19,605 nt of DNA from Candidatus Njordarchaeota archaeon (GTDB lineage Archaea > Asgardarchaeota > Njordarchaeia > Njordarchaeales > JAHKLH01): positions 1-19,605 of the forward strand of contig JAHKLH010000006.1 of assembly GCA_029856635.1 (NCBI GenBank), given 5' to 3'. Made by a program: the position numbers and the translations under genes. Under the pieces are notes generated by a model. It saw only the letters and a program-made list of their open reading frames with translations. It did not search any database and had not been told where the DNA came from. Positions 2,896-19,147 of this stretch are shown here, one piece after another. Within the stretch, counting starts at the first letter, position 1. Every line of letters begins with the position of its first letter.

Positions 2896-3645
2896 GTGCG
2901 CATAGTTATATTGAGTAGCGATAATTATTTCAAAAAACACCAGGTATCCTTAGATGAGATCCTATCCTATGGAGAGTATGGAGAATTTCTTGGTGATGCC
3001 ATTTCCAAAGGCTTAAAACCGGTGAAAGCATTAAGAATGCTTTACAAGAATGGAAGTAGTTTTCTTGAGCTTCGAGAACGATTAAAAAAACATGATATAT
3101 CTGTTGAACTCTATTTCATTGCACCATTTGGTGTACTTCGCGAAAACGATTTAATTATTCCTTATGCTCCTAAGCTGAATGAACTAACTATGGAGAAACT
3201 TGCTTTCTTCTTTACGGAAAACAACATTATCGAATGTGTACAAAAAATCTTAGAAGAAGAGCCAGATATAATAATCATTGCATTGCCCTACAAGATAATA
3301 AAAGCACTAGGTGTGCTCAGTTACATTTCTCGTAATACAATTGCTATAATTATCTCTGATAAGGTATCTCCAATGTATGAAAGAAACATTGGATTCCTAG
3401 TAAATAAACCATTTTCTCCAAAAACCTGCGCAACAATAATTTCAAAGTTGCTTAGAAGAATTCTTTGGTTAGCGAAAGAGAATAAAATTAAAGATATTCT
3501 CGCAGAGCGTTCTGCAAATAAACTGATAAGTAATTATTTAGAGGAAAGAAGAGACTTAAGTTTGATGAAATATATTCTTCAAGGGGAAAAGAATGACAAA
3601 AAGGAAAATTGCAATACCCGGAGAAAAGCTTTGTTCAGTGACTAA
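2896..3645 (+). CDS. Hypothetical protein (249 aa), 3' end overlaps the csl4 start by 53 nt
   Basis: Provided ORF with a GTG start. No family recognised. Composition is coding-like. Confidence 0.55.
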   Translation: MRIVILSSDNYFKKHQVSLDEILSYGEYGEFLGDAISKGLKPVKALRMLYKNGSSFLELRERLKKHDISVELYFIAPFGVLRENDLIIPYAPKLNELTMEKLAFFFTENNIIECVQKILEEEPDIIIIALPYKIIKALGVLSYISRNTIAIIISDKVSPMYERNIGFLVNKPFSPKTCATIISKLLRRILWLAKENKIKDILAERSANKLISNYLEERRDLSLMKYILQGEKNDKKENCNTRRKALFSD

Positions 3646-4201
3646 AGCTATACCTGGAGAAAACGTGATTGTGAACCGTCAAAAAATATACTCAGTTGCA
3701 TTTGGCGAAGTGATATTAGATAAAGAAAATCACATACATGTTTTTCCATTGCGAGAAGTAAACTTTCCAAGGAAAAATGATTTAGCACTCGGTATTGTGT
3801 ATAACACTACTGAAATTCTGGTTTGGATACGATTAGTATGCGCTCTCAGAAACAATAAAATAATACCATATAACGGCATATTCACCGGAGTTATTCACAG
3901 GTCACAGACAGGCATGGTGGGCGATCCCCGACAAATTTTTGGACTTGGTGATATTGTACTTACTCGCGTATTAAGTTCAGAGTTTATCCCTTTAATGCTT
4001 TCAACACGGGAACCCGAGACTGGTATCGTTGCGGGCTATTGTAATAAAGATGGAGTTCCTTTAGAAAAAAGAGATGAGCAATTATTTTGTCCATTATGCA
4101 AAAAAACAGTAAGGAAGAAAATGTCTATTCACTATAATTTCAAGCAATTCAGAGCACTTTTCTTTCAGTATTATGAAGTAAAAAGAACATACGTGGTTTA
4201 A
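3593..4201 (+). CDS. csl4: Exosome complex RNA-binding cap subunit Csl4
   Basis: The N-terminal ...IAIPGEKL... segment, a central S1-like segment (...GIVYNTTE...GVIHRSQ...GDIVLTRVLS...) and the C-terminal zinc-ribbon region GIVAGYCNKDG...LFCPLCKK...RKKMS match Csl4 architecture. Confidence 0.8.
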   Translation: MTKRKIAIPGEKLCSVTKAIPGENVIVNRQKIYSVAFGEVILDKENHIHVFPLREVNFPRKNDLALGIVYNTTEILVWIRLVCALRNNKIIPYNGIFTGVIHRSQTGMVGDPRQIFGLGDIVLTRVLSSEFIPLMLSTREPETGIVAGYCNKDGVPLEKRDEQLFCPLCKKTVRKKMSIHYNFKQFRALFFQYYEVKRTYVV

Positions 4202-4456
4202 ATGAACAACATCTTAAAGCTTATTAGTTTAGGTTTCCTGCCACCAAAATTCTCAAAAGAAGAACTAGAATCCACGCTTTTCTACTTAATATGGGATCAA
4301 TTTAGAGGATTCTGTACTTTTGCACAGACGATTACGCTCACTCCGCCAAGATTCTTCTGTAGCAAGCTCAAAAGAGAATGTTCCTTTGATGAGTGCCCAA
4401 TCATAGCCGAAGCACTTCAGCGTTATGAACGCAAATTAAGATTGAGAATGACCTAA
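4202..4456 (+). CDS. Hypothetical 84-aa Cys-containing protein; start abuts the csl4 stop
   Basis: Provided ORF. Its ATG immediately follows the csl4 TAA (TAAATG). Four Cys residues lie in the C-terminal half. No family recognised. Confidence 0.45.
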   Translation: MNNILKLISLGFLPPKFSKEELESTLFYLIWDQFRGFCTFAQTITLTPPRFFCSKLKRECSFDECPIIAEALQRYERKLRLRMT

Positions 4457-4513
4457 GCAAAGGTAGCTCGCACTTTTAAAGCGAATACTTATTTTGTTTT
4501 TGGGCATCACAAA

Positions 4514-5008
4514 ATGGTAGATTATTTAGATTTGATTGTCCGTATTTCCCTTGCCGAAAAACGATTAAAAAAGGTTCTTCGTAAAATGGAAAAGCAACGA
4601 AAAAAATTGTATGAGAATGTCAAAAAAGCAGTTATAGACGGTGATGAATTATCGGCTAGAAATTATGCAACACGTATTGTATCCCTCATAAAGCAAGAAA
4701 GAAAATTACAAAAGTTTCTCGATTACCTAGAACAAGCCAAATTAAGGATCGAGAAAGCACACATTTTGTCAGAACTAGGTGGAGTAATCAGCACTCTCGA
4801 AAAGCTTGAAAGAGTTAGTGGGCTTGAGGATGATCGCTTAGAAGAATTTATGCGAAACTTGGAGTTATCAGAATCCCTTGAGACGCGAGTGGAAGATGAG
4901 GAATTAGTTGAAAAAATAGTACAACAAGCGAAAACTGAATCAATAAAGGAACTGGAGGAGTTGCTTCCTTCACCAGAGGGTGAAAGCATTGAACTCGAAG
5001 AAAAATGA
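4514..5008 (+). CDS. ESCRT-III / CdvB (Snf7-family)-like coiled-coil protein
   Basis: The pattern ...RKMEKQRKKLYENVKKAVIDGDELSARNYATRIVSLIKQERKLQKF...LEQAKLRIEKAHILSELGGVISTLEKL... parallels the alpha1-alpha3 core of crenarchaeal CdvB/ESCRT-III as I recall it. The tail is acidic and ends ...ELLPSPEGE. Confidence 0.68.
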   Translation: MVDYLDLIVRISLAEKRLKKVLRKMEKQRKKLYENVKKAVIDGDELSARNYATRIVSLIKQERKLQKFLDYLEQAKLRIEKAHILSELGGVISTLEKLERVSGLEDDRLEEFMRNLELSESLETRVEDEELVEKIVQQAKTESIKELEELLPSPEGESIELEEK

Positions 5009-5579
5009 AAAAAAGAAAGAGTACATCAGCAAATTTGAAAGTGAGTTAGACAAATACGTAAAGAAGGAAAAAGAAAAGATGCTTCGATCACTTATTTCCC
5101 TTTATTACCGATTAAAAGAAAAAGGAACTGTAGGTACGAAAGTAGGATCAATTTTACTTCATCTTAGACTTAGAATAGAGGGGTTTACGCGAGAAGATGA
5201 ATCTGTAAGAAGTCTAGAGCATTTTTTGCTTGAGATAATTGATGCGCTGGAAGGTGTAGCAAGTTTACGTGAAATTATGGTTGAAATGAATAAAAAAGGG
5301 TGGAAAATCCGCACTAATGACTTGCTAACGATTATTTATAATCTAGCTAGAAGAGGTATTTTCTCAGTTATGGGAGGCGTTGTTGTAAAAGGTAATATAA
5401 CTGAAACTAGATTAACGAATAAAATCATCAAAGAGTTGCACACTTCTCCAATAACGATTGAACAATTAGCGCAAAAATTACAAAGGGACGTGAATGTTAT
5501 ACATGCCATCGTGAATTCGCTAAAACGAATGGGGATCATAACCATGGGAGAAAATGGGAAAATTCTTCTAGTTAGATGA
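4980..5579 (+). CDS. Tandem winged-helix protein (ESCRT-II Vps25/EAP30-like or CdvB-wH-like; function unresolved)
   Basis: Provided ORF. There are two consecutive wH-like segments (...SLREIMVEMNKKGWKIRTNDLLTIIYNLARRGIF... and ...ITIEQLAQKLQRDVNVIHAIVNSLKRMGII...). It overlaps the upstream ESCRT-III-like gene. The start is uncertain: GTG 4980, or TTG 4989 with GAGG 9 nt upstream. Confidence 0.58.
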   Translation: MKALNSKKNEKKKEYISKFESELDKYVKKEKEKMLRSLISLYYRLKEKGTVGTKVGSILLHLRLRIEGFTREDESVRSLEHFLLEIIDALEGVASLREIMVEMNKKGWKIRTNDLLTIIYNLARRGIFSVMGGVVVKGNITETRLTNKIIKELHTSPITIEQLAQKLQRDVNVIHAIVNSLKRMGIITMGENGKILLVR

Positions 5580-6089
5580 TTTCTTCTTTTTCTTCTTACT
5601 TGGTTTTATTATCATAACATCCGCCAAAGTTAATGGACGTGGCTTTTTCAATTTAGCATCGAAAGAAAGAAGTTCAAGCTCTGCAGAAATGTCTTCCCTT
5701 AAATGTATTTTAAGAATTTTCTCCAAACGGTTAACAATTTCTTCTGAGGGAATGGCTTCGTTGTCTTCGATTTTCTTCAGAAATGAAGGTGAAATTGAAA
5801 GCATTTTGGCTAACTTTTCACGTGATAAACCTTTTGCTAAACGCGCTTGCTTTATTTTTTCACCATAATTTTCAACAAGATTAACTCTAAGTTCTATGGG
5901 AATTGTTTGTTTTCTTTCAAGTTTTTTAGGACGAGTTATGGTAATTCTCCTCATCTTTGGTGCTGAGGTAATACGTCGAGCACGAGTCAATTTTGCACAA
6001 TTTTCGCATAGAATTAATGTTGCTCCATTTACCTCGTACACTTTTGGCCTTGAAACAGAGCGACCACATATCTCGCAATAGTAGGGCAT
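5568..6089 (-). CDS. mbf1: Multiprotein bridging factor 1 (archaeal MBF1: N-terminal zinc ribbon plus C-terminal XRE-type HTH)
   Basis: MPYYCEICG...CENC zinc ribbon, plus HTH ...IKQARLAKGLSREKLAKMLSISPSFLKKIE... I trimmed the start to the ATG at 6089, which is preceded by AAGGAG. The TTG at 6107 in the ORF track is less likely. Confidence 0.85.
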   Translation of the reverse strand: MPYYCEICGRSVSRPKVYEVNGATLILCENCAKLTRARRITSAPKMRRITITRPKKLERKQTIPIELRVNLVENYGEKIKQARLAKGLSREKLAKMLSISPSFLKKIEDNEAIPSEEIVNRLEKILKIHLREDISAELELLSFDAKLKKPRPLTLADVMIIKPSKKKKKKSSN

Positions 6090-6127
6090 TATATTTCTCC
6101 TTAACAAAAATAATTAAGGGAAAAATA

Positions 6128-7627
6128 TTGAAGTTAGAAAGACGGTTTTATCAACTTTATATAGTTCATCAAATAAAGAAATGCTTAGAAAGAAACGAGA
6201 ATTGTATTGTGGAATTAGATGCTGGTCTTGGAAAACGTGTTATAATGTATCTTCTTGCAAAACACTTACCAGATAAAAATATCTTGATAATCACACCATC
6301 TAGAGCATCATTGGCGGATACTGCAATATTCTTTGAGGAAATGTCCAGAACTGAGAAGATTAATATGCGATTTGATTACCTAAAGCAAGGTATGCCTCAT
6401 CAACTACGCAAAAAAGTACTCGAAGAAAGCAGAGTAGTGTTATCAACTCCAATAACCCTAACGCGAACATTAAGTCGATATCCTGAATTAGCTCAAAAGT
6501 GGGATTTAGTCATAATTAACGAGGTAGACAAAATTGTTAAGAGAATTGCTTATGCTGAGGAAACTAGTGACATGGAGGATACTGTACCTAGATTAACAAC
6601 TGCTAACAGATTTTCAGTAACAAAAGGAGTAAGAAAAACAAAGCTTACTTATCCATGGAACGAATTAATAAAGCTTATTTCCAAAAAGTGCATAATTGTA
6701 GGAATGAGTGGAACTCTAAGAGATAAACATATAATCCATACGGGTGAGAAAATAACGCTAAAGGATGAGATAAAAACATTACTAGAAACAGTCTTTAGAG
6801 CCAAAAAAACAAAAATAATAACCATGGACGAACTTCTTAAAAAAACAGATGTATGGAGATATACCCAAAAGAATCTAACAATCATACGCACAATAGCTAT
6901 TCATGATGAAAAAATTCAAACCATTGATAGGATACTTTCAGAAGAAATTGAAAGTATTCTCAAAAGATTGGCTAAAAAAGAACATACGAATGATTACACG
7001 GTCATAGAGAAAGCTATTTCTCTCTTGGAAGATGAGCCTACAAAATTTAAATTAATACGTCTTGTCCTTGCTCGAAGGTTCTTAGTTGCAACCTATCCGC
7101 AACACTATATTCAATTTCTGAATAAGTCGTTCATTAAGCAATTATTAGAAAGAAAAACAAATAAGGAGTTCAATGAATTGATTCCAAAAGAATCTTCAAA
7201 AATCAAAAAGCTTTGTGAAATTGTTGAAGCATGGGTTAAACAAGGGTTCAAGGTTGCGATTTTGTCTTCTTTCGTTAGAACTACTCAGCGTATAGCAAAG
7301 GCTCTTAGAGAAAGGAACTTGAAAGTGTTCACACTAACTGGAGCCACATTAGACAAAGAGGAAGTTCTAAGAGAATTCAAAAATAATGGAGACGTACTTT
7401 GCTTTAGCCCAGTTGGCGAGAGAGATATAGATCTTCCCGTGGATGTTCTTATAATCCATGATGTTATTCGTACCACAAAAACGATGTATCAGCGGATGAA
7501 ACGAGGAAGACGTTCATTTGTTTTGATTACTTTTTACAGTGGAACACATGAGGAGCAAAAAGTATCTAGTCTTCTAATTGAAGTTAGGCGAAAATACCCT
7601 TGGACAATTAGAGTTTATAAGGAGTGA
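6128..7627 (+). CDS. SF2 helicase-like protein (Hef/FANCM/ERCC4-helicase-like) with atypical motifs I and II
   Basis: Motif I-like ELDAGLGKR (GKR codons at 6230-6238), motif II-like IINEVD (6518-6529), SGT motif III and motif VI QRMKRGRR (7490-7513). The ORF-track 5' extension overlaps mbf1. An in-frame TTG at 6128 follows AAGGG, and there is no in-frame ATG before 6243. Confidence 0.72.
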   Translation: MKLERRFYQLYIVHQIKKCLERNENCIVELDAGLGKRVIMYLLAKHLPDKNILIITPSRASLADTAIFFEEMSRTEKINMRFDYLKQGMPHQLRKKVLEESRVVLSTPITLTRTLSRYPELAQKWDLVIINEVDKIVKRIAYAEETSDMEDTVPRLTTANRFSVTKGVRKTKLTYPWNELIKLISKKCIIVGMSGTLRDKHIIHTGEKITLKDEIKTLLETVFRAKKTKIITMDELLKKTDVWRYTQKNLTIIRTIAIHDEKIQTIDRILSEEIESILKRLAKKEHTNDYTVIEKAISLLEDEPTKFKLIRLVLARRFLVATYPQHYIQFLNKSFIKQLLERKTNKEFNELIPKESSKIKKLCEIVEAWVKQGFKVAILSSFVRTTQRIAKALRERNLKVFTLTGATLDKEEVLREFKNNGDVLCFSPVGERDIDLPVDVLIIHDVIRTTKTMYQRMKRGRRSFVLITFYSGTHEEQKVSSLLIEVRRKYPWTIRVYKE

Positions 7628-11793: not shown

Positions 11794-13206
11794 TTACCTT
11801 GGTGTTCTTATTAACTCCTCTAGCTCCCCTAATAACCGCATATGTTTTATGAAATCTTCTTCAGTAATTCTAATTTTCTGCATTCGAGCATTCTCAAGTA
11901 CATTCAGTAAACGTAGAAAACGATCTCTGTATCTCTCGTGGAATGTCGATGAAATATGTGAGAATTCCTCAATAATTTCAAGAATTTTTTCCTTGGCAAT
12001 ACCATGTTTTCTTTTCATTTCAAAAATCAGATAAGCAATATACATGGAAAGTGCTGAAACAAAATCACGCTTTTGTATAAAGAACCTCAATCGTTCTCTA
12101 AATTCAGATATAAGCTCTCGGCGTTCTGGTTTAAGTATTGGAATTTTTGGACTTACTGCATGCCCAGCAAATCCCAATAATATTGAAATCAATATTATTG
12201 GAATAACGGGAGCTAGGAACCAGCTGGTACTCAACCAAAGGAGTCCAGAAAGCCAAAGTCCTAACCAGAATACGGGCTCAAAGGGTGTTTTAGAAAGATG
12301 GCTTTCATCAAATATCACTAATTTCTCTTCACAGACTTGAGATAGCCATTCGAACAAATTCAAAATAAATTTTTCATTATCACATCCAATTTTAGAAGCT
12401 TCATCTAAGACATCATTTGTAAATATGTCTGGATCAGAAATCATGGCAAAGCGTACACTAGCAAAATCACCAATGATGCTTAAGCTGAAAGAAATTCCTC
12501 CCCATTCGTTAGGATCCGGTGTAGCGCTTCCTTCTTTGGCGTCTTTAAGCGATGTTTCAAGCCAAGAGTACTGAGTAGATGCCAAAAATCCAGCTTCTCC
12601 TGGCAAAGGTACAAATCGTTCACTTCCATTTTCTAATTTAAATTTTGCTACAATTACTGACGGAAAATTAGTTAAAATTGCATTAACTCCACGCAAAATA
12701 CCATAAGGATCATTAAATCGAGTTATTATTGGAGCAGCTGGGGTTTTATAATAGCTTTCTGCATCCATTAGAACAGCAGATCTATTAAAGTATAGACCAA
12801 CGAGTTGGAATTTTTGACCGGGGATAGTATATGAGAGCATAGTCCAAATTCCATCGAGTAAGCTATTTGCTTGACCAAAATCATCAGCAATTAATAATGC
12901 TCCACCGTGCATGCCAAGATACGAAAGTAATGATATTACCTCGTACTGTGAAAACTCTATAGCAGGGCCAATAATAACAATTATCGCACTTTCATTTACC
13001 TTTGATAATGCTTGTAATGATGAAATAATGGTCATGACTCTGAAGCCATTTCTTTCTAATAAGCTCTTAAGTTTGCTTAAACCAAAACGTCCATTATTAC
13101 GAATAGAATATGGAGCAAAGCTTAAGTTTGGAAATATTCCAAAGACTAACAGGGAATATATAGAAAAGAGAAAAACAATCATCATTAGAGCCCTAATACT
13201 GTTCAT
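11794..13206 (-). CDS. DUF4350-like membrane protein
   Basis: N-terminal TM, then ...GLSKLKSLLERNGFRVMTI...AIIVIIGPAIEFSQYEV..GGALLIADDFG..., the pattern I associate with DUF4350. There is a later TM segment. Start trimmed to the ATG at 13206 (MNSIRAL...), 5 nt after the upstream gene's stop. Confidence 0.6.
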   Translation of the reverse strand: MNSIRALMMIVFLFSIYSLLVFGIFPNLSFAPYSIRNNGRFGLSKLKSLLERNGFRVMTIISSLQALSKVNESAIIVIIGPAIEFSQYEVISLLSYLGMHGGALLIADDFGQANSLLDGIWTMLSYTIPGQKFQLVGLYFNRSAVLMDAESYYKTPAAPIITRFNDPYGILRGVNAILTNFPSVIVAKFKLENGSERFVPLPGEAGFLASTQYSWLETSLKDAKEGSATPDPNEWGGISFSLSIIGDFASVRFAMISDPDIFTNDVLDEASKIGCDNEKFILNLFEWLSQVCEEKLVIFDESHLSKTPFEPVFWLGLWLSGLLWLSTSWFLAPVIPIILISILLGFAGHAVSPKIPILKPERRELISEFRERLRFFIQKRDFVSALSMYIAYLIFEMKRKHGIAKEKILEIIEEFSHISSTFHERYRDRFLRLLNVLENARMQKIRITEEDFIKHMRLLGELEELIRTPR

Positions 13207-13211
13207 GTGTA

Positions 13212-15497
13212 CTACCTCTCTTTGCGTTTTAACACAAAACTTAACCAATTTCTAATCGCGATTAATGATTTTACTAATAACTCCAATTCTCGATGGGATA
13301 ATATCCTATCAGCAAATACTATTTTCTCGTAGGAATTTACAAGATTATTTAATGAAGAAGCAATTTTCTTTGGGGCATGCCGAGATATATGACTAACAAA
13401 CTCCCGGAATGTCATCCATGGTGTCCACTTAACATTTAGGAATTCACCGATTTCATCACATAATCTTATGATATTAAGTGCAATCTTACCCCAATTTCGC
13501 CTATCAATTTCATCAATTGTAATGTCAATTAGCCTCATTATCTCAGAGATTTTTTCACGAGGCTTTGGTATCATTAGTTTCTTAAAGTAAGGAAAAGACA
13601 CAGCAATTACTAGTGCTAAGAGCAGTGTAATGAAAATGGGCCTTAAATCAGAGGGAGATGGTGTTATTTCTTCTTCTGGTGCTATTACGCTTACGTGAAT
13701 ATGCAACTCATACTTCTGTGTTTCTTCATTTTCCGGAACACTTAACCTGAAAATTATTTCAACGGTTTCATTTAACTGCAAAAATATAACTTTAGACACA
13801 TAGATTTCGATATTTTTTCTAGAAATATTACTGATTTCAATAGTGCAAAGAATAGTTTCATTATATGGTCTCAAGAAATTATCCAATATCGTGATGTTTA
13901 TTTCCAAGGTTACAGATTTTGCAAAGAATTCTAACTGAGAGGATGCGTTATGAGACACCACAGCACCATCGATGAGATCCCATGAAAACATTGTAGTGTT
14001 TACTCTAATGAACGCTGCTAGAAATCTCCAAATCAATACCTGTGTTGTATAATTCTTGGTAAAATAGAAACGCGAATCTGGTGATATAATATTTATTCCA
14101 ATAGTTACATTCGGCTCCATTAAATCTGCGGGGATTAAAATGTTCACATGAAAACGACCTAAGCTATCAGTGAGCACATTTTGTTGAAAGAAAAGAAATG
14201 TTGATGTTTTTGCAAAAATTAATAAAGAGGCGTTTCCTATGTATTTTCCTGATGGAACATCAACAACATGCCCGCTGATGCTTAAATAATCTCCAGCACG
14301 AACATAGTGCTTGCCTATGTTTACATCAACCACAGAAAGAATAGTGTATACGGTCATTGTTAAAATAGATGAAAAGTCGCTAGTGCTTGGATCTGTGTCA
14401 TTGAAAGTTAATATGTAATTCCCAACGGGAAAAGAAGGCGTTATGTTTAACAAAAATGTAAAACTTCCATCAACTGAAGTGTTTATTAGATAACTTTCGT
14501 TAAATGTAGATCCCCTTAGTGTAAACACTAACTGCGTAGCTTCCGGATCCCCCGTTGCATTTATATATTTTCCAGACACAATCACGTATGTATAATTTCT
14601 AAGAACCCTCAATGATGTGCTTCCATTAATCCTAGCACTAATTACACATGCCCATTTTACATTAAAGCTATCAAAATCCAAAGAACGGGGAATGCCAGAA
14701 ATGTTTGTTCTGTCTACAACATACTGTTCCTCGGCGATAAGATACTGAGCAGAGGGAATACTGCTTGCAATTGCATTGTAATTCGTGCCATTATACCAAA
14801 ATTCAGCTTGAACTTCATATCGTCCCTCACTTGTGAAATTGTAAATCAGCGTAAAAGAGCCATCTGTTCCTGTTGTTACATTAAATTGCTCAACAGAAGT
14901 GTTTAATTTAACATACAAAGATATGTTAATTGATTCAACTTTTAACTTCGTACCATTATCCATAACCAAAGATACAGTGATTTTAACATTTTTTTCAAAT
15001 GATGCTAAATTTCTCTTACTTAATTTAATATCAACGGAAATCTTACCCAAAATTGTTATTTCATATAATTTACTCGTTGGGCCAAATCCAGCTAGAGGAT
15101 TTCCAGGGTAATATATCCAAACAGTAGCATTTCCTATAGGATACGTAGACAAAACGGGAAATGAAACATTGAAATACCCCTGTGAATTCGTGCTAAAAGT
15201 TCCAATGAAAACAGATTTTCCACTACTAAAGTTAAGATAAACTTCAATTTGGTCATTGGGAATAGGTTCTCCAGTTTCTGGAGAGACTAATTGACCAGTA
15301 ATATTTACAAAATCCTCTCCGCGAACAAAGAATCCAAGCCAGTCAGAACTAGTTGCTCTTATTAAATTATCAAAGCTATTTTGTTTTGTTTCAGAAACTG
15401 CTTGCAGGCTTGAACTATTGATACATATATTGCCTCTAATGCCGAGCACTACATACAGTAGAGGGATCAAAAGAACTATTGTAGTTTTGAATCTCAT
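13212..15497 (-). CDS. Large secreted/surface protein with repeated beta-sandwich (carboxypeptidase-regulatory-like) modules, C-terminal TM and a DUF4129-like cytoplasmic tail
   Basis: It has a signal-like N-terminus, recurring ...G.V....G.PI.N..V......T...G.F...... modules and dozens of N-x-S/T sequons. TM LRPIFITLLLALVIAVSF. The tail ...WTPWMTFREFVSHIS...LNNLVNSYEKIVFADRILSHRE... resembles DUF4129. Confidence 0.62.
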   Translation of the reverse strand: MRFKTTIVLLIPLLYVVLGIRGNICINSSSLQAVSETKQNSFDNLIRATSSDWLGFFVRGEDFVNITGQLVSPETGEPIPNDQIEVYLNFSSGKSVFIGTFSTNSQGYFNVSFPVLSTYPIGNATVWIYYPGNPLAGFGPTSKLYEITILGKISVDIKLSKRNLASFEKNVKITVSLVMDNGTKLKVESINISLYVKLNTSVEQFNVTTGTDGSFTLIYNFTSEGRYEVQAEFWYNGTNYNAIASSIPSAQYLIAEEQYVVDRTNISGIPRSLDFDSFNVKWACVISARINGSTSLRVLRNYTYVIVSGKYINATGDPEATQLVFTLRGSTFNESYLINTSVDGSFTFLLNITPSFPVGNYILTFNDTDPSTSDFSSILTMTVYTILSVVDVNIGKHYVRAGDYLSISGHVVDVPSGKYIGNASLLIFAKTSTFLFFQQNVLTDSLGRFHVNILIPADLMEPNVTIGINIISPDSRFYFTKNYTTQVLIWRFLAAFIRVNTTMFSWDLIDGAVVSHNASSQLEFFAKSVTLEINITILDNFLRPYNETILCTIEISNISRKNIEIYVSKVIFLQLNETVEIIFRLSVPENEETQKYELHIHVSVIAPEEEITPSPSDLRPIFITLLLALVIAVSFPYFKKLMIPKPREKISEIMRLIDITIDEIDRRNWGKIALNIIRLCDEIGEFLNVKWTPWMTFREFVSHISRHAPKKIASSLNNLVNSYEKIVFADRILSHRELELLVKSLIAIRNWLSFVLKRKER

Positions 15498-16207
15498 ATC
15501 CGCCGCCGTGAGCGAAGTTTTTGAAGCTCCCGATTTATATACGAACGTACTCTGTTATAAAGATCGGGTACATGAGCTTCCCTTTCAATAAGTCTAATAG
15601 CACTCTCAACAATTTTCATAATCTCTGGATCCGCCTTTATCCAAATAACACCATTTGCACCAACGCGAATATCAGCATGTGTTAATTGCTTAATCATATT
15701 AATTAATTTTCCTTGTTTGCCAATAATTGCAGGAATTTTTGTTATATCTACGAAAATAAGCTTGCCACCAACGAGTTTACCAAGATCTGATGCTGCAGCA
15801 CTAAGCTGTGGAAGTGCGCCTCTTTCTGCTAAGATAACTTTAGCACAAACTACATCTCCCACATCCAAAAAACTCCTTATGTTTTCTCTCATTGGATCTA
15901 TAGGTCTACCTAAGAAATCTACTGCATCTAATCTTGCGACCTGATCAGCACCAATATCAACGTACCATGTAACGGGACCATAATCAACAACTTTTCCTAT
16001 CACTATGTCTCCCACCTTTGGAATATACTGATGATATCGAAGAGGAATGACCTTAACAGTCCTTTTTCGAAAATCAATGTGTGCAATACCCATAACATAC
16101 GCCCTAACAACATCACCATCTTTATAGGCCCCAAACTCTGTTCTCCATTGAGTACCCCTAACAATAGGTTCGCCAGGGATAACTATGCTACGATGCTTGG
16201 AACTCAT
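15494..16207 (-). CDS. rrp4: Exosome complex RNA-binding subunit Rrp4 (N-terminal, S1 and KH domains)
   Basis: ...IVIPGEPI..., S1 segment ...YIPKVGDIVIGKVVDYGPVTWYVDIG... and KH segment ...KIPAIIGKQGKLINMIKQLTHADIRVGANGVIWI... Confidence 0.9.
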   Translation of the reverse strand: MSSKHRSIVIPGEPIVRGTQWRTEFGAYKDGDVVRAYVMGIAHIDFRKRTVKVIPLRYHQYIPKVGDIVIGKVVDYGPVTWYVDIGADQVARLDAVDFLGRPIDPMRENIRSFLDVGDVVCAKVILAERGALPQLSAAASDLGKLVGGKLIFVDITKIPAIIGKQGKLINMIKQLTHADIRVGANGVIWIKADPEIMKIVESAIRLIEREAHVPDLYNRVRSYINRELQKLRSRRRI

Positions 16208-16292: not shown

Positions 16293-17039
16293 GTGATTAG
16301 AATGAAAAAAGGCGAAGTCCAATTACTTGATGAACAAAAAAGAAGACATGATGGGAGAGCGCCGAATGAAACACGACCAATATCAATGAAAGTAGGCGTT
16401 TTAGATAGAGCTGATGGTTCAGCATTAGTAGAGTTCGGCAAAACAAAAGTATTAGCCGCAGTTTATGGTCCAAGAGAGGTTCATCCAAGACACCTAGCAC
16501 TTCCCGATCGAGCATTATTGAGAGTTTCATACCGTATGGCAACATTTTCTACATGGGAAAGAAAACGCCCCACTCCCTCTAGGCGCGAAATAGAATTAAG
16601 TATGGTAATTGCAAGTGCGCTCGAACCAGCATTATTTCTAGAAAAATATCCAAAATGTGCAATTGATGTGTTCTGTCTTGTAATCGAAGCTGATGGCGGC
16701 ACACGTACTACAGCAATTAATGCAGCATCTTTAGCGTTAGCAGATGCTGGTATTCCAATGAGAGGATTAGTTGTAGCAATAGCTGTTGGAAGAGTTGGTG
16801 ATACCATCATAGTTGACCTAGATGAGGTTGAAGACAATTACGCTGAGTCAGATATGCCGATTGCAATGCTATTTCCACAAGAAGAAATTACACTTTTACA
16901 GATGGATGGAACAATGTCACCACATCTTTTCGAGCAAGCATTAGAAACTGCAAGACAAGTGCTGAGGAATGTTTACTCTCTTCAAGTAAAAGCTCTAAAA
17001 GAAAGAGCGCTTAAAGCTAGAACAAAGGTTGTATTATAG
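16293..17039 (+). CDS. rrp41: Exosome complex exonuclease Rrp41 (RNase PH-like catalytic subunit)
   Basis: ...DGRAPNETRPI...ADGSALVEFGKTKVLAAVYGPRE.HPRHLALPDRALLRVSY...PSRREIELS...ADGGTR...ASLALADAGIPMR... closely matches archaeal Rrp41. GTG at 16293 or ATG at 16302. Confidence 0.93.
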   Translation: MIRMKKGEVQLLDEQKRRHDGRAPNETRPISMKVGVLDRADGSALVEFGKTKVLAAVYGPREVHPRHLALPDRALLRVSYRMATFSTWERKRPTPSRREIELSMVIASALEPALFLEKYPKCAIDVFCLVIEADGGTRTTAINAASLALADAGIPMRGLVVAIAVGRVGDTIIVDLDEVEDNYAESDMPIAMLFPQEEITLLQMDGTMSPHLFEQALETARQVLRNVYSLQVKALKERALKARTKVVL

Positions 17040-17915
17040 GTGAATTTCATGGCGGAGGAAGAAAGAAAAATCATTCCCAGCATTATCAAGGAAAATATTC
17101 TTGAATTACTGAAAGAAGAAAAAAGAATTGACGGAAGAAAACTATTCGAATTCAGGAAGTTAAGAATAATCCCTGGGCCAATTGAGAAAGCAGAGGGAAG
17201 CGCATTAGTGCTCTTAGGAAACACAAAAGTGCTTGTTGGAGTAAAAATGTCACTAGGAAAACCATTTCCAGACACACCTAATGAAGGAGTACTCGTAGTA
17301 AATGCCGAATTTCAACCAGTTGCTTCTCCTTATTGGGAACTTGGTCCAAATGAATATGCAATTGAACTAGCGAGGGTAGTGGATCGCGCAATAAGATCGT
17401 CAGGAATGGTAGCATTAGATGAACTTGTCATACATCCCGGCGAACTCTGCTGGGTAATAAACGTGGACATATATCCAATAGACGACAATGGAAACTTAAT
17501 TGACACAGCATTAATTGGAGCTGTAGCAGCATTACTAACAACAAGAGTTCCTGAAATAGATTTTTCAAGCGGAAAACCACAGTTAAAAAGAGAAGAAGGA
17601 AAACCATTACCAATACGCGACATACCAATATCATGTACATTCGCAAAAATAGGCGAACAAATGGTACTAGACCCAAACAAACAAGAAGAGTGTCTCATGA
17701 GTGCAAGACTAACAATAGCAGTAAACTCCGCTAATGAAATATGCACAATCCAGAAAATGAAAGGAGGAGGATTCACAATCGATGATATCATTAGAGCAAA
17801 AGACATAACAATTCAAAAAGCAAAAGATCTACGAAGAGAAATACAGAAACAAGTAGCAGAAAAAGCAAGAGGAGAAGAAATCTGGAAAGAAATCAGAGAA
17901 GTACTTACAAGTTAA
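17040..17915 (+). CDS. rrp42: Exosome complex subunit Rrp42 (RNase PH-like, non-catalytic)
   Basis: ...RIDGRKLFEFRKLRI...AEGSALVLLGNTKVLVGVK... has an RNase PH fold pattern and lies immediately after rrp41. GTG at 17040 abuts the rrp41 stop; an ATG at 17049 is an alternative. Confidence 0.9.
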   Translation: MNFMAEEERKIIPSIIKENILELLKEEKRIDGRKLFEFRKLRIIPGPIEKAEGSALVLLGNTKVLVGVKMSLGKPFPDTPNEGVLVVNAEFQPVASPYWELGPNEYAIELARVVDRAIRSSGMVALDELVIHPGELCWVINVDIYPIDDNGNLIDTALIGAVAALLTTRVPEIDFSSGKPQLKREEGKPLPIRDIPISCTFAKIGEQMVLDPNKQEECLMSARLTIAVNSANEICTIQKMKGGGFTIDDIIRAKDITIQKAKDLRREIQKQVAEKARGEEIWKEIREVLTS

Positions 17916-17995: not shown

Positions 17996-18175
17996 AACTA
18001 CAAAATCATGGCTAGAAAATTATCACAACCATATATTTTCGAAAATTAGTTTTAGATCATCACTAACATAACAGAAGAGGTAACAAAAAATCCTTTCCTT
18101 ATAACTCGTTAACCCTTAGTTACAAGATTCCCCAACAGAAACATTAAACAAAAACAATTTCAGTTAAAGATTAAG

Positions 18176-18185
18176 CTTTTTATAT
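18176..18185 (+). promoter_or_regulatory. Candidate TATA box (TTTTTATATG region) for the 5S rRNA precursor
   Basis: TATA-like box about 25 nt upstream of where the sequence turns GC-rich (about 18207-18212). T-runs at 18384-18387 and 18404-18408 follow the GC-rich block. Confidence 0.5.
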
Positions 18186-18215
18186 GTTAACTCATTCTAT
18201 ACATAACGGTCTAAG

Positions 18216-18371
18216 GCGGGCTCCCCGGAAGCTAAGCCGCGCCACGACGGGCTGCTAGGAGGGTGCGCGAGCCCCTCCGAAGGCTCGTTGCTGCCAGCTC
18301 CATTCGGGGCTGGCGGCCACAGGGCGCGGGATAACGCCCGTTCCCATTCCGAACACGGAAAGGAGCCCGTC
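18216..18371 (+). other. 5S rRNA precursor unit, including leader/trailer processing helix and BHB-like motif
   Basis: Leader GGCGGGCUCC (18216-18225) pairs with trailer GGAGCCCGUC (18362-18371): 10 bp including one G-U. Inside it lie the 3-nt bulge A18359-A18361, central helix C18226:G18358, C18227:G18357, G18228:C18356 plus a G18229/A18355 mismatch, and the 3-nt bulge A18230-G18232. Confidence 0.6.
18232..18360 (+). rRNA. 5S rRNA, circularly permuted gene (order: 3' half, 4-nt loop, 5' half)
   Basis: 18306-18360 GGGGCUGGCGGCCACAGGGCGCGGGAUAACGCCCGUUCCCAUUCCGAACACGGAA is a canonical archaeal 5S 5' half. 18232-18301 GCUAAGCCGCGCCACGACGGGCUGCUAGGAGGGUGCGCGAGCCCCUCCGAAGGCUCGUUGCUGCCAGCUCC is the canonical 3' half. 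Helices I, II (GGCGCGG/CCGCGCC), III (UUCC/GGAA), IV (GGAGGG/CCCUCC) and V (ACGGGCU/GGCUCGU) all form only after rotation. Confidence 0.85.
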
Positions 18372-18484
18372 GTCCTTGATTAATTTTCATTAAAATTCTC
18401 CTATTTTTAGTTCAATGTCAACGAAATTCTTTATTAAGGTTTAAAGGTATCTTAAGTGAGTATTTGTGAGAGAATGGTGATGAG

Positions 18485-19147
18485 ATGTCTGGAATAAGAA
18501 GCGAAATTCGTGTTCGAATTTCAAGTGATGTTAAAGAGATGGAAAAGCTCGGCGAAACTAAGCTAGCTCCTATTTCAGCTTATGTGAAATACGGTGTCCA
18601 CATAGGTACAAACAAACTAACTAAGGACATGCGTCGTTTTGTATACAAGAAGAAACATGGAGTTTGGCTTCTAAATATTATACAAACTGACGAAAGGCTT
18701 CGGCTTGCTGCAAGGCTTTTATCCCTCTATGATTCAGAAGACGTTGCCGTTTTTGCACTAAGATTATATGCACAAAAACCAGCTCTTAAATTTTCCAAAT
18801 ACACGGGATTTAAATGTTTCATTGGACGCGCCACACCAGGAACACTAACAAACCCTGCACTTGTTAGTTATACCGAGCCAGAAATCATTCTAATCACTGA
18901 CCCAGCAAAAGAGAGACATATTATTGAAGAAGCAAATTTGAGAGGAATTCCTATTATTGCACTCGTTGATACAAATAATACTCTCTCCTGGGTTGACTTT
19001 GCAATTCCATCAAATAACAAGGGAAGAAAAGCATTAGCATTTGTCTTTTGGTTATTAACAAATGCCATATTGAGAGAAAAGGGACTTTTGCAAGAAAATC
19101 AAACAATTGATGAAACTCCAGAAAGCTTTATGGTAATGCTAGCATAA
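18485..19147 (+). CDS. rps2: 30S ribosomal protein S2 (uS2)
   Basis: ...YVKYGVHIGT...VWLLNIIQTDERLRLAARLL...ILITDPAKERHIIEEANLRGIPIIALVDTNNTLSWVDFAIPSNNKGRKALAFVFWLL... is the uS2 family signature. Confidence 0.92.
   Translation: MSGIRSEIRVRISSDVKEMEKLGETKLAPISAYVKYGVHIGTNKLTKDMRRFVYKKKHGVWLLNIIQTDERLRLAARLLSLYDSEDVAVFALRLYAQKPALKFSKYTGFKCFIGRATPGTLTNPALVSYTEPEIILITDPAKERHIIEEANLRGIPIIALVDTNNTLSWVDFAIPSNNKGRKALAFVFWLLTNAILREKGLLQENQTIDETPESFMVMLA

Follow-up and report, generated by a model that had tools for sequence, protein, structure and literature searches.

We analyzed a 19,605-bp stretch of DNA (here called the window, which is the whole of contig JAHKLH010000006.1 as it is on record in NCBI and JGI) and found that it carries a circularly permuted gene for 5S ribosomal RNA (rRNA), in which the 3' part of the molecule is encoded upstream of the 5' part on the plus strand. 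Comparison with related loci indicates that this is almost certainly a functional 5S rRNA gene, and a conserved helix between the sequences flanking it very probably brings the ends of the unit together for processing. The best explanation of the locus as a whole appears to be a permuted, functional 5S rRNA gene whose transcript is processed by the transfer RNA (tRNA) splicing endonuclease (EndA) and the ligase RtcB into a circular product, a model that we favor with moderate confidence. The farther-reaching proposition, that the permuted gene would be the sole 5S rRNA gene in these archaea and that its product, sealed by the splicing machinery, would work as a 130-nucleotide (nt) circle, is tentative, and we give it slightly less than even weight.

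The unit spans positions 18231 to 18360 (130 nt), ends in ...CGAACACGGAA at 18360, and occupies an island of 69% G+C in a window of 35.6% G+C, between the genes for exosome subunits (Rrp4, minus strand; Rrp41 and Rrp42, 16293-17915) and the gene for uS2 (18485-19147). Its parts, in genomic order, are as follows.

18231-18298, plus strand: 3' part of 5S rRNA (RF00001 positions ~52-120), comprising the helix III base, the 3' side of loop B, the helix II 3' strand, helix V, loop E, helix IV, loop D, and the helix I 3' strand; assigned by an Rfam partial match (33-120), a profile match (45-114), and pairing
18231-18238, plus strand: GCUAAGCC, read from the sequence
18237-18243, plus strand: helix II 3' strand, CCGCGCC, read from the sequence
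18290-18298, plus strand: helix I 3' strand, GCUGCCAGC, read from the sequence
18299-18308, plus strand: cap, UCCAUUCGGG, with the loop AUUC at 18302-18305; assigned by sequence and hairpin fold
18309-18360, plus strand: 5' part of 5S rRNA (RF00001 positions 1-51), comprising the helix I 5' strand, loop A, the helix II 5' strand, loop B, helix III, loop C, and the end ...CGAACACGGAA; assigned by an Rfam partial match from model position 1, a profile match (3-51), and pairing
18309-18317, plus strand: helix I 5' strand, GCUGGCGGC, read from the sequence
18318-18322, plus strand: loop A, CACAG, read from the sequence
18323-18329, plus strand: helix II 5' strand, GGCGCGG, read from the sequence

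An earlier note on this DNA had named the conserved elements of 5S rRNA in this rotated order on the plus strand, placed the loop AUUC at 18302-18305, and proposed that joining the 3' end of the unit to its 5' end restores the stretch ...CCGAACACGGAA-GCUAAGCC...; all of the named elements were found in the order claimed, and both the position of the loop and the restored junction were borne out. The unit, by comparison, had been given as 18232-18360 (129 nt) and needs to be corrected: the G of GCUAAGCC is at 18231, so its length is 130 nt.

The genomic order of the window yielded no match to the Rfam family RF00001 at the gathering score (38 bits), and neither did the related loci L020, L055, L067, L072, and L100, while the 13 ordinary archaeal 5S rRNAs included in the same Rfam run scored 65 to 106 bits. 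A permissive RF00001 scan returned two partial matches (23.2 and 14.6 bits) in reversed order, covering model positions 33 to 120 at ~18224-18299 and model position 1 onward from 18309, which is what the earlier note had predicted for the native sequence. RF00001 was the only 5S-type Rfam family matched in a permissive scan of 18150-18450, where mtPerm-5S gave no match, and no Rfam 15 family recognized the permuted arrangement when the window and five related loci were scanned. Merging the partial Infernal alignments accounted for 28 of 34 pairs, with helix II out of register, the halves having been aligned separately.

Rotated sequences were scored by a profile of 13 canonical archaeal 5S rRNAs together with structure counts, in place of the Rfam covariance model. 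The profile matched the rotated window from position 3 to position 114 with 58.6 bits (E value of 3e-19), whereas the native window yielded only two reversed pieces (33.8 and 17.8 bits); five other rotated sequences matched over their full length at 58 to 72 bits, and their native forms again fell into two reversed pieces. Considering that the rotated form matches the canonical profile over its full length and the native form matches it only as reversed pieces, the permutation signal is far beyond chance expectation. Moreover, RNAalifold applied to six rotated sequences recovered the 5S three-way junction with helices I to V, in which 22 of 38 pairs were compensated. A structure predicted from the 13 canonical 5S rRNAs alone (24 pairs in helices I, II, III, and IV) was fully paired in the rotated window (24/24) and 99.3% paired across 12 rotated sequences (the window and the relatives described below), and the window 5S is identical at 33 of the 41 highly conserved Rfam positions. 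In sequence and in predicted structure, the rotated form is a complete archaeal 5S rRNA, and the circular permutation claimed in the earlier note is upheld by the two reversed Rfam partial matches as well as by the full 5S obtained on rotation.

Relatives of the locus were gathered by two pattern scans and by look-ups of neighboring genes. The first, genome-wide pattern (TAAGCC, a gap, and CCCAYNCCGAACNCGGAA) gave 119 listed matches, the majority of which were ordinary 5S rRNA genes with TAAGCC 85 to 115 nt upstream, a motif that in many cases seems to mark the 3' terminus of the 23S rRNA gene; tandem actinobacterial 5S pairs also occurred among the matches listed, and at least five matches were real permuted loci. 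When the first base (A) of the trailer was added to the pattern in a metagenome scan, 8 of the 10 matches proved real. The permuted arrangement is shared by four other assemblies that are ~96% identical to the window and come from separate samples and assemblers (ENA, JGI, and Logan), two of them placing it in contigs of 81 and 53 kb, and by one relative that is 85% identical. In total, it was found in 12 sequence types (the window and 11 others, which answers the earlier note's suggestion to look for the arrangement in relatives), with 60 to 98% pairwise identity of the 5S body. Assemblies with a permuted gene include JANJXX01, JALWRR01, CBDULE01, and CAZWPQ01, and the environments sampled include hydrothermal sediment and hot springs (for example, SRR6823441/2, SRR7051160, Ga0190313, and Ga0180301). 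These sequence types consist of 66 to 71% G+C 5S RNA surrounded by 37 to 40% G+C DNA, and such high-G+C RNA in low-G+C DNA is a thermophile signature. The lineage bearing the permuted gene is most likely Asgard, because the neighboring genes of the relatives include components of the endosomal sorting complex required for transport (ESCRT; EAP30 and Snf7) and Ras/Arf-family GTPases and because one record is labeled Promethearchaeati.

Several loci stand apart from this set. On the minus strand of L100 (Candidatus Helarchaeota archaeon Hel_GB_B, SUPR01000030.1), at ~1174-1301 in locus coordinates, there is a divergent candidate permuted 5S rRNA gene of 47% G+C in DNA of 29% G+C, the rotated form of which matches the canonical profile over its full length (57.9 bits); its leader-trailer stem is long and interrupted, the CCG/CGG pairing described below is present, and its trailer starts with G, not A. 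The permuted arrangement may thus extend past the main clade. In L133 (~6523-6720, minus strand), the 5S body and trailer match L131 and the leader matches the L121 type with three mismatches to the trailer, so that the locus gives the impression of a chimera between strains, joined within the conserved 5S; it was left out of the comparisons, its leader not pairing with its trailer. A more distant relative, L143, encodes a uS2 that is 56% identical and has neighboring genes with E3_UFM1_ligase and OST3/OST6 domains. Neither a permuted nor a co-linear 5S was found in this 11-kb locus, and a 3-kb stretch without called genes (~4200-7200; 50 to 58% G+C in surroundings of 36% G+C) may be an unlinked 23S rRNA gene.

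The key to how such a gene can work is a helix between its leader and its trailer, together with a motif resembling a bulge-helix-bulge (BHB), both of which had been missed in the earlier note. The components of this flanking structure in the window are listed below.

18215-18224, plus strand: leader strand of helix A, GGCGGGCUCC, forming 10 contiguous pairs with 18362-18371
18225-18228, plus strand: leader CCGG, 5' strand of the central helix, pairing with 18355-18358 (ACGG) through three Watson-Crick pairs and a G.A
18229-18231, plus strand: 5' bulge A-A-G, in which AA and G are invariant; predicted cut at 18230/18231
18359-18361, plus strand: 3' bulge A-A-A, with AAA invariant in 12/12; predicted cut at 18360/18361
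18362-18371, plus strand: trailer strand of helix A, GGAGCCCGUC, pairing with 18215-18224

Helix A comprises 10 to 16 contiguous pairs and lies at the same place, close beside both ends of the 5S body, in all 12 sequence types, although its sequences are completely different. Termini were compared as equal-length, ungapped constructs of 60 nt, as MAFFT alignment of the full precursors had gapped the leader of the window and broken the register of the helix. In this ungapped alignment of 12 sequences, 12/12 positions of helix A were changed on both sides and 97.9% of the cells were paired. For the 16-pair structure, none of 500 shuffles reached the observed value on four of five measures and 9 of 500 did so on the fifth, and sliding the partner strand lowered the pairing to 24 to 46%. 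The 96%-identical relatives, whose trailer reads GGAGCCCGCC, have a G-C pair where the window has G.U.

In all 12 sequences, the leader segment that links helix A to the 5S body is CCG-R-AA, and the first base of the trailer is A. The CCG of the leader is invariant in all 12 despite the completely different helix A sequences beside it, and A18361 is invariant even though it lies outside the 5S and is hence under no 5S constraint. Minimum-energy folds of the two strands produced helix A, the 3-nt AAA bulge, and the CCG/CGG pairing in every one of the 12. The central helix thus has three invariant Watson-Crick pairs, and AAG sits symmetrically to AAA on the other strand, resulting in a geometry in which either strand carries a 3-nt bulge 3' of its part of the central helix, the two bulges lying four positions apart, as in the archaeal BHB.

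Cutting of a BHB takes place after the second base of the bulge. By this rule, the cuts would leave G18231 and A18360 as ends and, when these are joined, the canonical ...CGGAA-GCUAAGCC... junction, so that two independent rulers, 5S homology and motif geometry, agree on the predicted junction. As read by hand, the same rule also fits the intron-bearing tRNA-Ser gene that L020 carries ~350 nt ahead of its permuted 5S; this tRNA-Ser(GCU) gene (1879-1974) has a 14-nt intron at 37/38, and the central helix of its BHB contains a U.U mismatch. With a BHB defined as a 4-bp central helix flanked by at least one 3-nt bulge (PMC4731332), the flanking motif of the permuted 5S fits a relaxed variant and not the strict motif. 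Strict registers, which would build the central helix from the trailer and the start of the 5S body, were examined by hand, and none of the six junction registers pairs; the register that works is that in which the leader forms the central helix with the 3' end of the body. We also considered a kink-turn (L7Ae-binding) reading of the AAA bulge, which would call for tandem sheared G.A pairs after the bulge, and rejected it, the next bases being GG, GA, UC, CC, CU, etc., canonically paired with the leader.

This motif also sheds a different light on the CGGAA direct repeat at the unit boundaries, which the earlier note had interpreted as the scar of a tandem duplication. The second copy is at 18356-18360 as had been given, the first copy is at 18226-18230 and not at 18227-18231, and the repeat is not conserved, with CGAAA in the leader versus CGGAA in the body in 5 of the 12 types. 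It is better explained by near-palindromic CCGG/CGG pairing plus AA bulges, the invariant CCG and AA of the leader belonging to a processing motif, as the strand that pairs with CGG of the body. Duplication remains a reasonable source of the permuted gene, and tandem 5S pairs are a kind of intermediate that could give rise to one. For instance, apparent tandem 5S-type segments ~120 to 135 nt apart were seen with the first pattern in L031, L043, L058, L077, and L091, which belong to the actinobacteria Mycobacterium, Mycolicibacterium, and Sanguibacter, and in L116 (Halorussus; 6210-6461) a full 5S adjoins a shorter second 5S match (54.5 bits by Rfam).

The cap stands where an ordinary 5S rRNA has its two free termini. 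In the window, it adds three pairs (U.G, C-G, and C-G) and the loop AUUC to helix I, which becomes a hairpin of 12 pairs with a folding energy of -24.0 kcal/mol. All 12 sequences close helix I as a hairpin of 11 to 13 pairs with a loop of 3 to 4 nt, the extension amounting to 2 to 5 pairs. The loops (AUUC, UAGA, UUCG, GUUA, GCAA, GUAA, and UUUG) include cUUCGg in three sequences and GNRA in two, and neither a conserved sequence nor a conserved cleavage feature was found in the cap. Such a pattern suggests that selection has favored a stably closed helix I rather than a site for cleavage.

Putative transcription signals flank the unit at the positions given below, which agrees with the TATA-like box and downstream T runs of the unit's own that the earlier note had described.

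18179-18184, plus strand: TATA-like box, TTTATA, ~30 nt upstream of the leader helix; presumed promoter
18384-18408, plus strand: T runs, TTTT (18384-18387) and TTTTT (18404-18408); presumed archaeal termination signals

Each of the 11 loci that extend far enough upstream has a box of the type TTTATA, TTTAAA, or TATAAA ahead of the junction, at a distance of 45 to 65 nt in the window and eight relatives and farther upstream in L020 and L120, and runs of at least four T's lie ~10 to 60 nt past helix A in 8 of 11 relatives. We infer that the box acts as the promoter and the T runs as terminators; a scan for sigma-70 promoters and intrinsic terminators, which is not applicable to archaea, was uninformative. 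In L020 (1879-2235), L072 (3069-3239), and L120 (4511-4852), the permuted 5S lies 75 to 110 nt downstream of a tRNA cluster, which in this subclade ends in tRNA-Gly(CCC), and here the 5S may be cotranscribed with the tRNA genes.

On the proposed pathway, the unit would be transcribed from its own TATA box, and leader and trailer would pair to offer a relaxed BHB motif to EndA, which would cleave past the second base of each bulge, i.e., at 18230/18231 and 18360/18361. RtcB would then ligate A18360 to G18231, so that the strand from helix III to helix II would run uninterrupted through ...CGGAA-GCUAAGCC..., and, as the cap has closed helix I beforehand, the product would be a 130-nt covalently closed circle. 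This circle would remain the mature form in the ribosome. Cleavage by EndA and ligation are probable as modeled from the motif. For the mature state, the circle is judged the most likely form, because of the paired cap, the extra-stable tetraloops in several lineages, and the lack of a conserved cleavage feature, and we hold the balance of belief in it to be even. A number of observations weigh against the proposal. At the fourth position of the central helix, only 3 of the 12 types have a Watson-Crick pair, the other 9 having G.A or A.A, and the 5' bulge (AAG) lacks a closing outer helix on its 3' side. Besides, the CGG of the body can also pair with the CCG of helix III, so that the motif competes with the 5S fold, and conservation is the sole evidence for the CCG/CGG pairing, which is unable to covary because CGG is fixed by the 5S. 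Finally, the absence of a co-linear 5S holds for the 212 kb of neighboring sequence from these lineages that was searched and is not genome-wide.

Two other fates of the transcript would retain a functional permuted gene. The circle might be an intermediate that is subsequently opened in the cap (18299-18308), yielding an ordinary linear 5S with its ends in helix I. The cap is located exactly at the normal end positions of 5S, and permuted tRNA genes as well as archaeal 16S and 23S precursors provide examples of reopening after circularization (PMC4267664; PMC10515664), but the sequence of the cap is unconserved, its loops vary and include extra-stable tetraloops on a fully paired extension, and the A/U-rich cleavage motif of methanogen 5S maturation (PMC10515664) is absent from this G+C-rich element, so that we regard reopening as rather unlikely. 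Alternatively, the flanks might merely be trimmed, leaving a permuted linear 5S with unligated ends at 18231 and 18360 and a nick between helix III and helix II, in which base pairing and proteins would hold the molecule together as in the permuted mitochondrial 5S. Brown-algal mitochondrial 5S is indeed permuted in its final product also (PMC4267664), and in such a molecule helix III would go on anchoring the 3' end, and helix II the 5' end. Nevertheless, the BHB-like geometry, with its invariant 3-nt bulges giving the canonical junction, has the look of a substrate for an endonuclease plus a ligase, archaeal cleavage products of this kind are generally joined by RtcB (PMC4731332), and a nick at a helix junction would be destabilizing for a thermophile; an unligated mature form is therefore distinctly unlikely.

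The remaining alternatives concern the gene itself, and both had been raised in the earlier note as grounds on which its claim might fail. That the locus is a rearranged pseudogene, with a co-linear 5S elsewhere doing the work, draws what support it has from the limited, 212-kb extent of the search for a co-linear 5S. The arrangement has, however, persisted in 12 types whose identity falls as low as 60%, loops A, C, and E being conserved and compensatory changes occurring in all helices; the flanking helix covaries, the promoter-like boxes are conserved, and the 212 kb contained no co-linear 5S. Such a conservation pattern is unexpected for a decaying relic, and a silent pseudogene is very improbable. 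As for a misassembly, i.e., a misjoin within a 5S gene or a tandem 5S pair, the related contigs L130, L132, L134, and L137 end within or beside the 5S, and leader and trailer are mismatched in L133. Four ~96%-identical assemblies from varied samples and assemblers, along with many distant relatives, nonetheless share the arrangement, and leader and trailer are complementary in each locus, unlike the product of a misjoin; an artefact is for practical purposes excluded, its probability being close to nil.

Other genes of the window were also surveyed. A tRNA-Gly(GCC) gene (23-96), intronless and of 73% G+C, lies upstream of the eIF6 gene (150-860). The exosome genes beside the 5S are on two strands, Rrp4-like at 15494-16207 (minus) followed by Rrp41 and Rrp42 (plus) up to 17915, and a separate open reading frame (ORF) at 3593-4201, 12 kb away from them, has a weak match, below the Pfam cutoff, to an Rrp4/Csl4-type N-terminal domain. 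On the minus strand, a gene for a 761-amino-acid protein with CarboxypepD_reg, MG2, and Ig-like domains (13212-15497) is followed by one for a DUF4350/ABC_transp_aux protein (11794-13248), and these two genes adjoin the exosome genes in the 96%-identical relatives too. In addition, an ORF at 4980-5579 (plus) has a winged-helix C terminus with a weak match to the EAP30/Vps36 family (E value of 0.007) and is situated beside a gene for an HTH_3/HVO_2718-like regulator (5568-6107, minus). The same regulator adjoins clear EAP30 and Snf7 (ESCRT) genes in relatives, and this pair of genes is the chief hint within the window itself of an Asgard archaeon.

These findings place the permuted 5S in a known class, that of permuted RNA genes repaired by the tRNA splicing machinery, with very good support at the gene level and with a predicted pathway that is well motivated. 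It would be the first such case for 5S, the archaeal rRNA thought to bypass BHB cleavage and circularization (PMC12918454). If the pathway is true, 5S would be the third class of universal RNA restored by the tRNA splicing machinery, after tRNA and signal recognition particle (SRP) RNA, and there would be ribosomes with a closed-circle 5S. If, in addition, the permuted gene is the sole 5S rRNA gene and its circle works in the ribosome, EndA and RtcB would be obligatory factors of ribosome biogenesis for 5S, and the circle would be the first natural circular 5S rRNA. Practically, Rfam/Infernal and the annotation pipelines that depend on them miss the permuted 5S, with the consequence that genomes of these lineages are scored as lacking 5S rRNA and fail the "high-quality" completeness criteria; a dedicated model would fix this. 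The rearrangement is also a discrete and rare genomic character that could help to place thermophilic Asgard lineages, whose labels conflict in public records (Crenarchaeota, Nitrososphaerota, and Promethearchaeati), and that would mark a clade if true.

Among known systems, permuted tRNA genes reportedly occur in Cyanidioschyzon merolae, where Soma et al. are said to have described them in 2007, and in Thermofilum pendens. Like these, the permuted 5S gene has its 3' half upstream of its 5' half, its leader-trailer motif resembles the BHB type found there, and a route through a circular RNA is shared as well, by prediction in the case of 5S. Whereas RNase P and tRNase Z excise the tRNA linker, so that the final tRNA is linear, the linker of the permuted 5S is a 10-nt paired cap without a recognizable processing signal. 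The permuted mitochondrial 5S of brown algae and other stramenopiles (Valach et al. 2014, PMC4267664; mtPerm-5S) shares a closed helix I hairpin with ends located elsewhere; its ends, however, are at the three-way junction, between the alpha and gamma domains, and its final RNA is permuted and unligated, whereas the break in the archaeal gene falls between helix III and helix II (domain beta). The mitochondrial form is, moreover, organellar and A+T rich and has no BHB, in contrast to the archaeal one with its BHB-like motif.

Circularization is also known for archaeal rRNAs encoded in the usual order. The pre-16S and pre-23S rRNAs contain a BHB in their processing stem that is cut by EndA, with circularization by RtcB, and in some lineages ribosomes contain the 23S in circular form or as a permuted derivative of it (PMC10515664, PMC12918454, PMC7758197). 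In contrast to the permuted 5S, these genes are co-linear, so that circularization is not needed for sequence order, and 5S has been explicitly described as outside this BHB/circularization route (PMC12918454). A passage of PMC12558985, citing Danan et al. 2012, tells of circular 5S-containing RNAs in Sulfolobus and Halobacterium with variable junctions and a degradation-related reading; as described in that passage, they come from co-linear genes, whereas a single, precise junction set by gene structure is predicted here. Our search of the literature found no report of a permuted archaeal rRNA gene or of an obligatorily circular 5S.

The closest precedent is the permuted SRP RNA of Thermoproteus tenax and T. 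uzoniensis (Plagens et al. 2015, PMC4731332), whose leader and trailer form a BHB that the splicing endonuclease cleaves and which remains a circle. It differs from the permuted 5S in the RNA and the hosts involved, the latter here carrying Asgard-type genes and not being Thermoproteales, and in the motif, since that of 5S has no outer helix at its 5' bulge and mostly a non-Watson-Crick fourth central pair; besides, the 5S case is known from sequence alone. The two cases nevertheless have in common a universal structured RNA that is permuted, pairing of leader and trailer at the new termini (in a BHB in Thermoproteus and a relaxed, BHB-like motif in 5S), and a thermophile host. The original ends are closed in the mature SRP RNA circle of Thermoproteus, just as the original ends of the 5S are capped and a circle is predicted for it.

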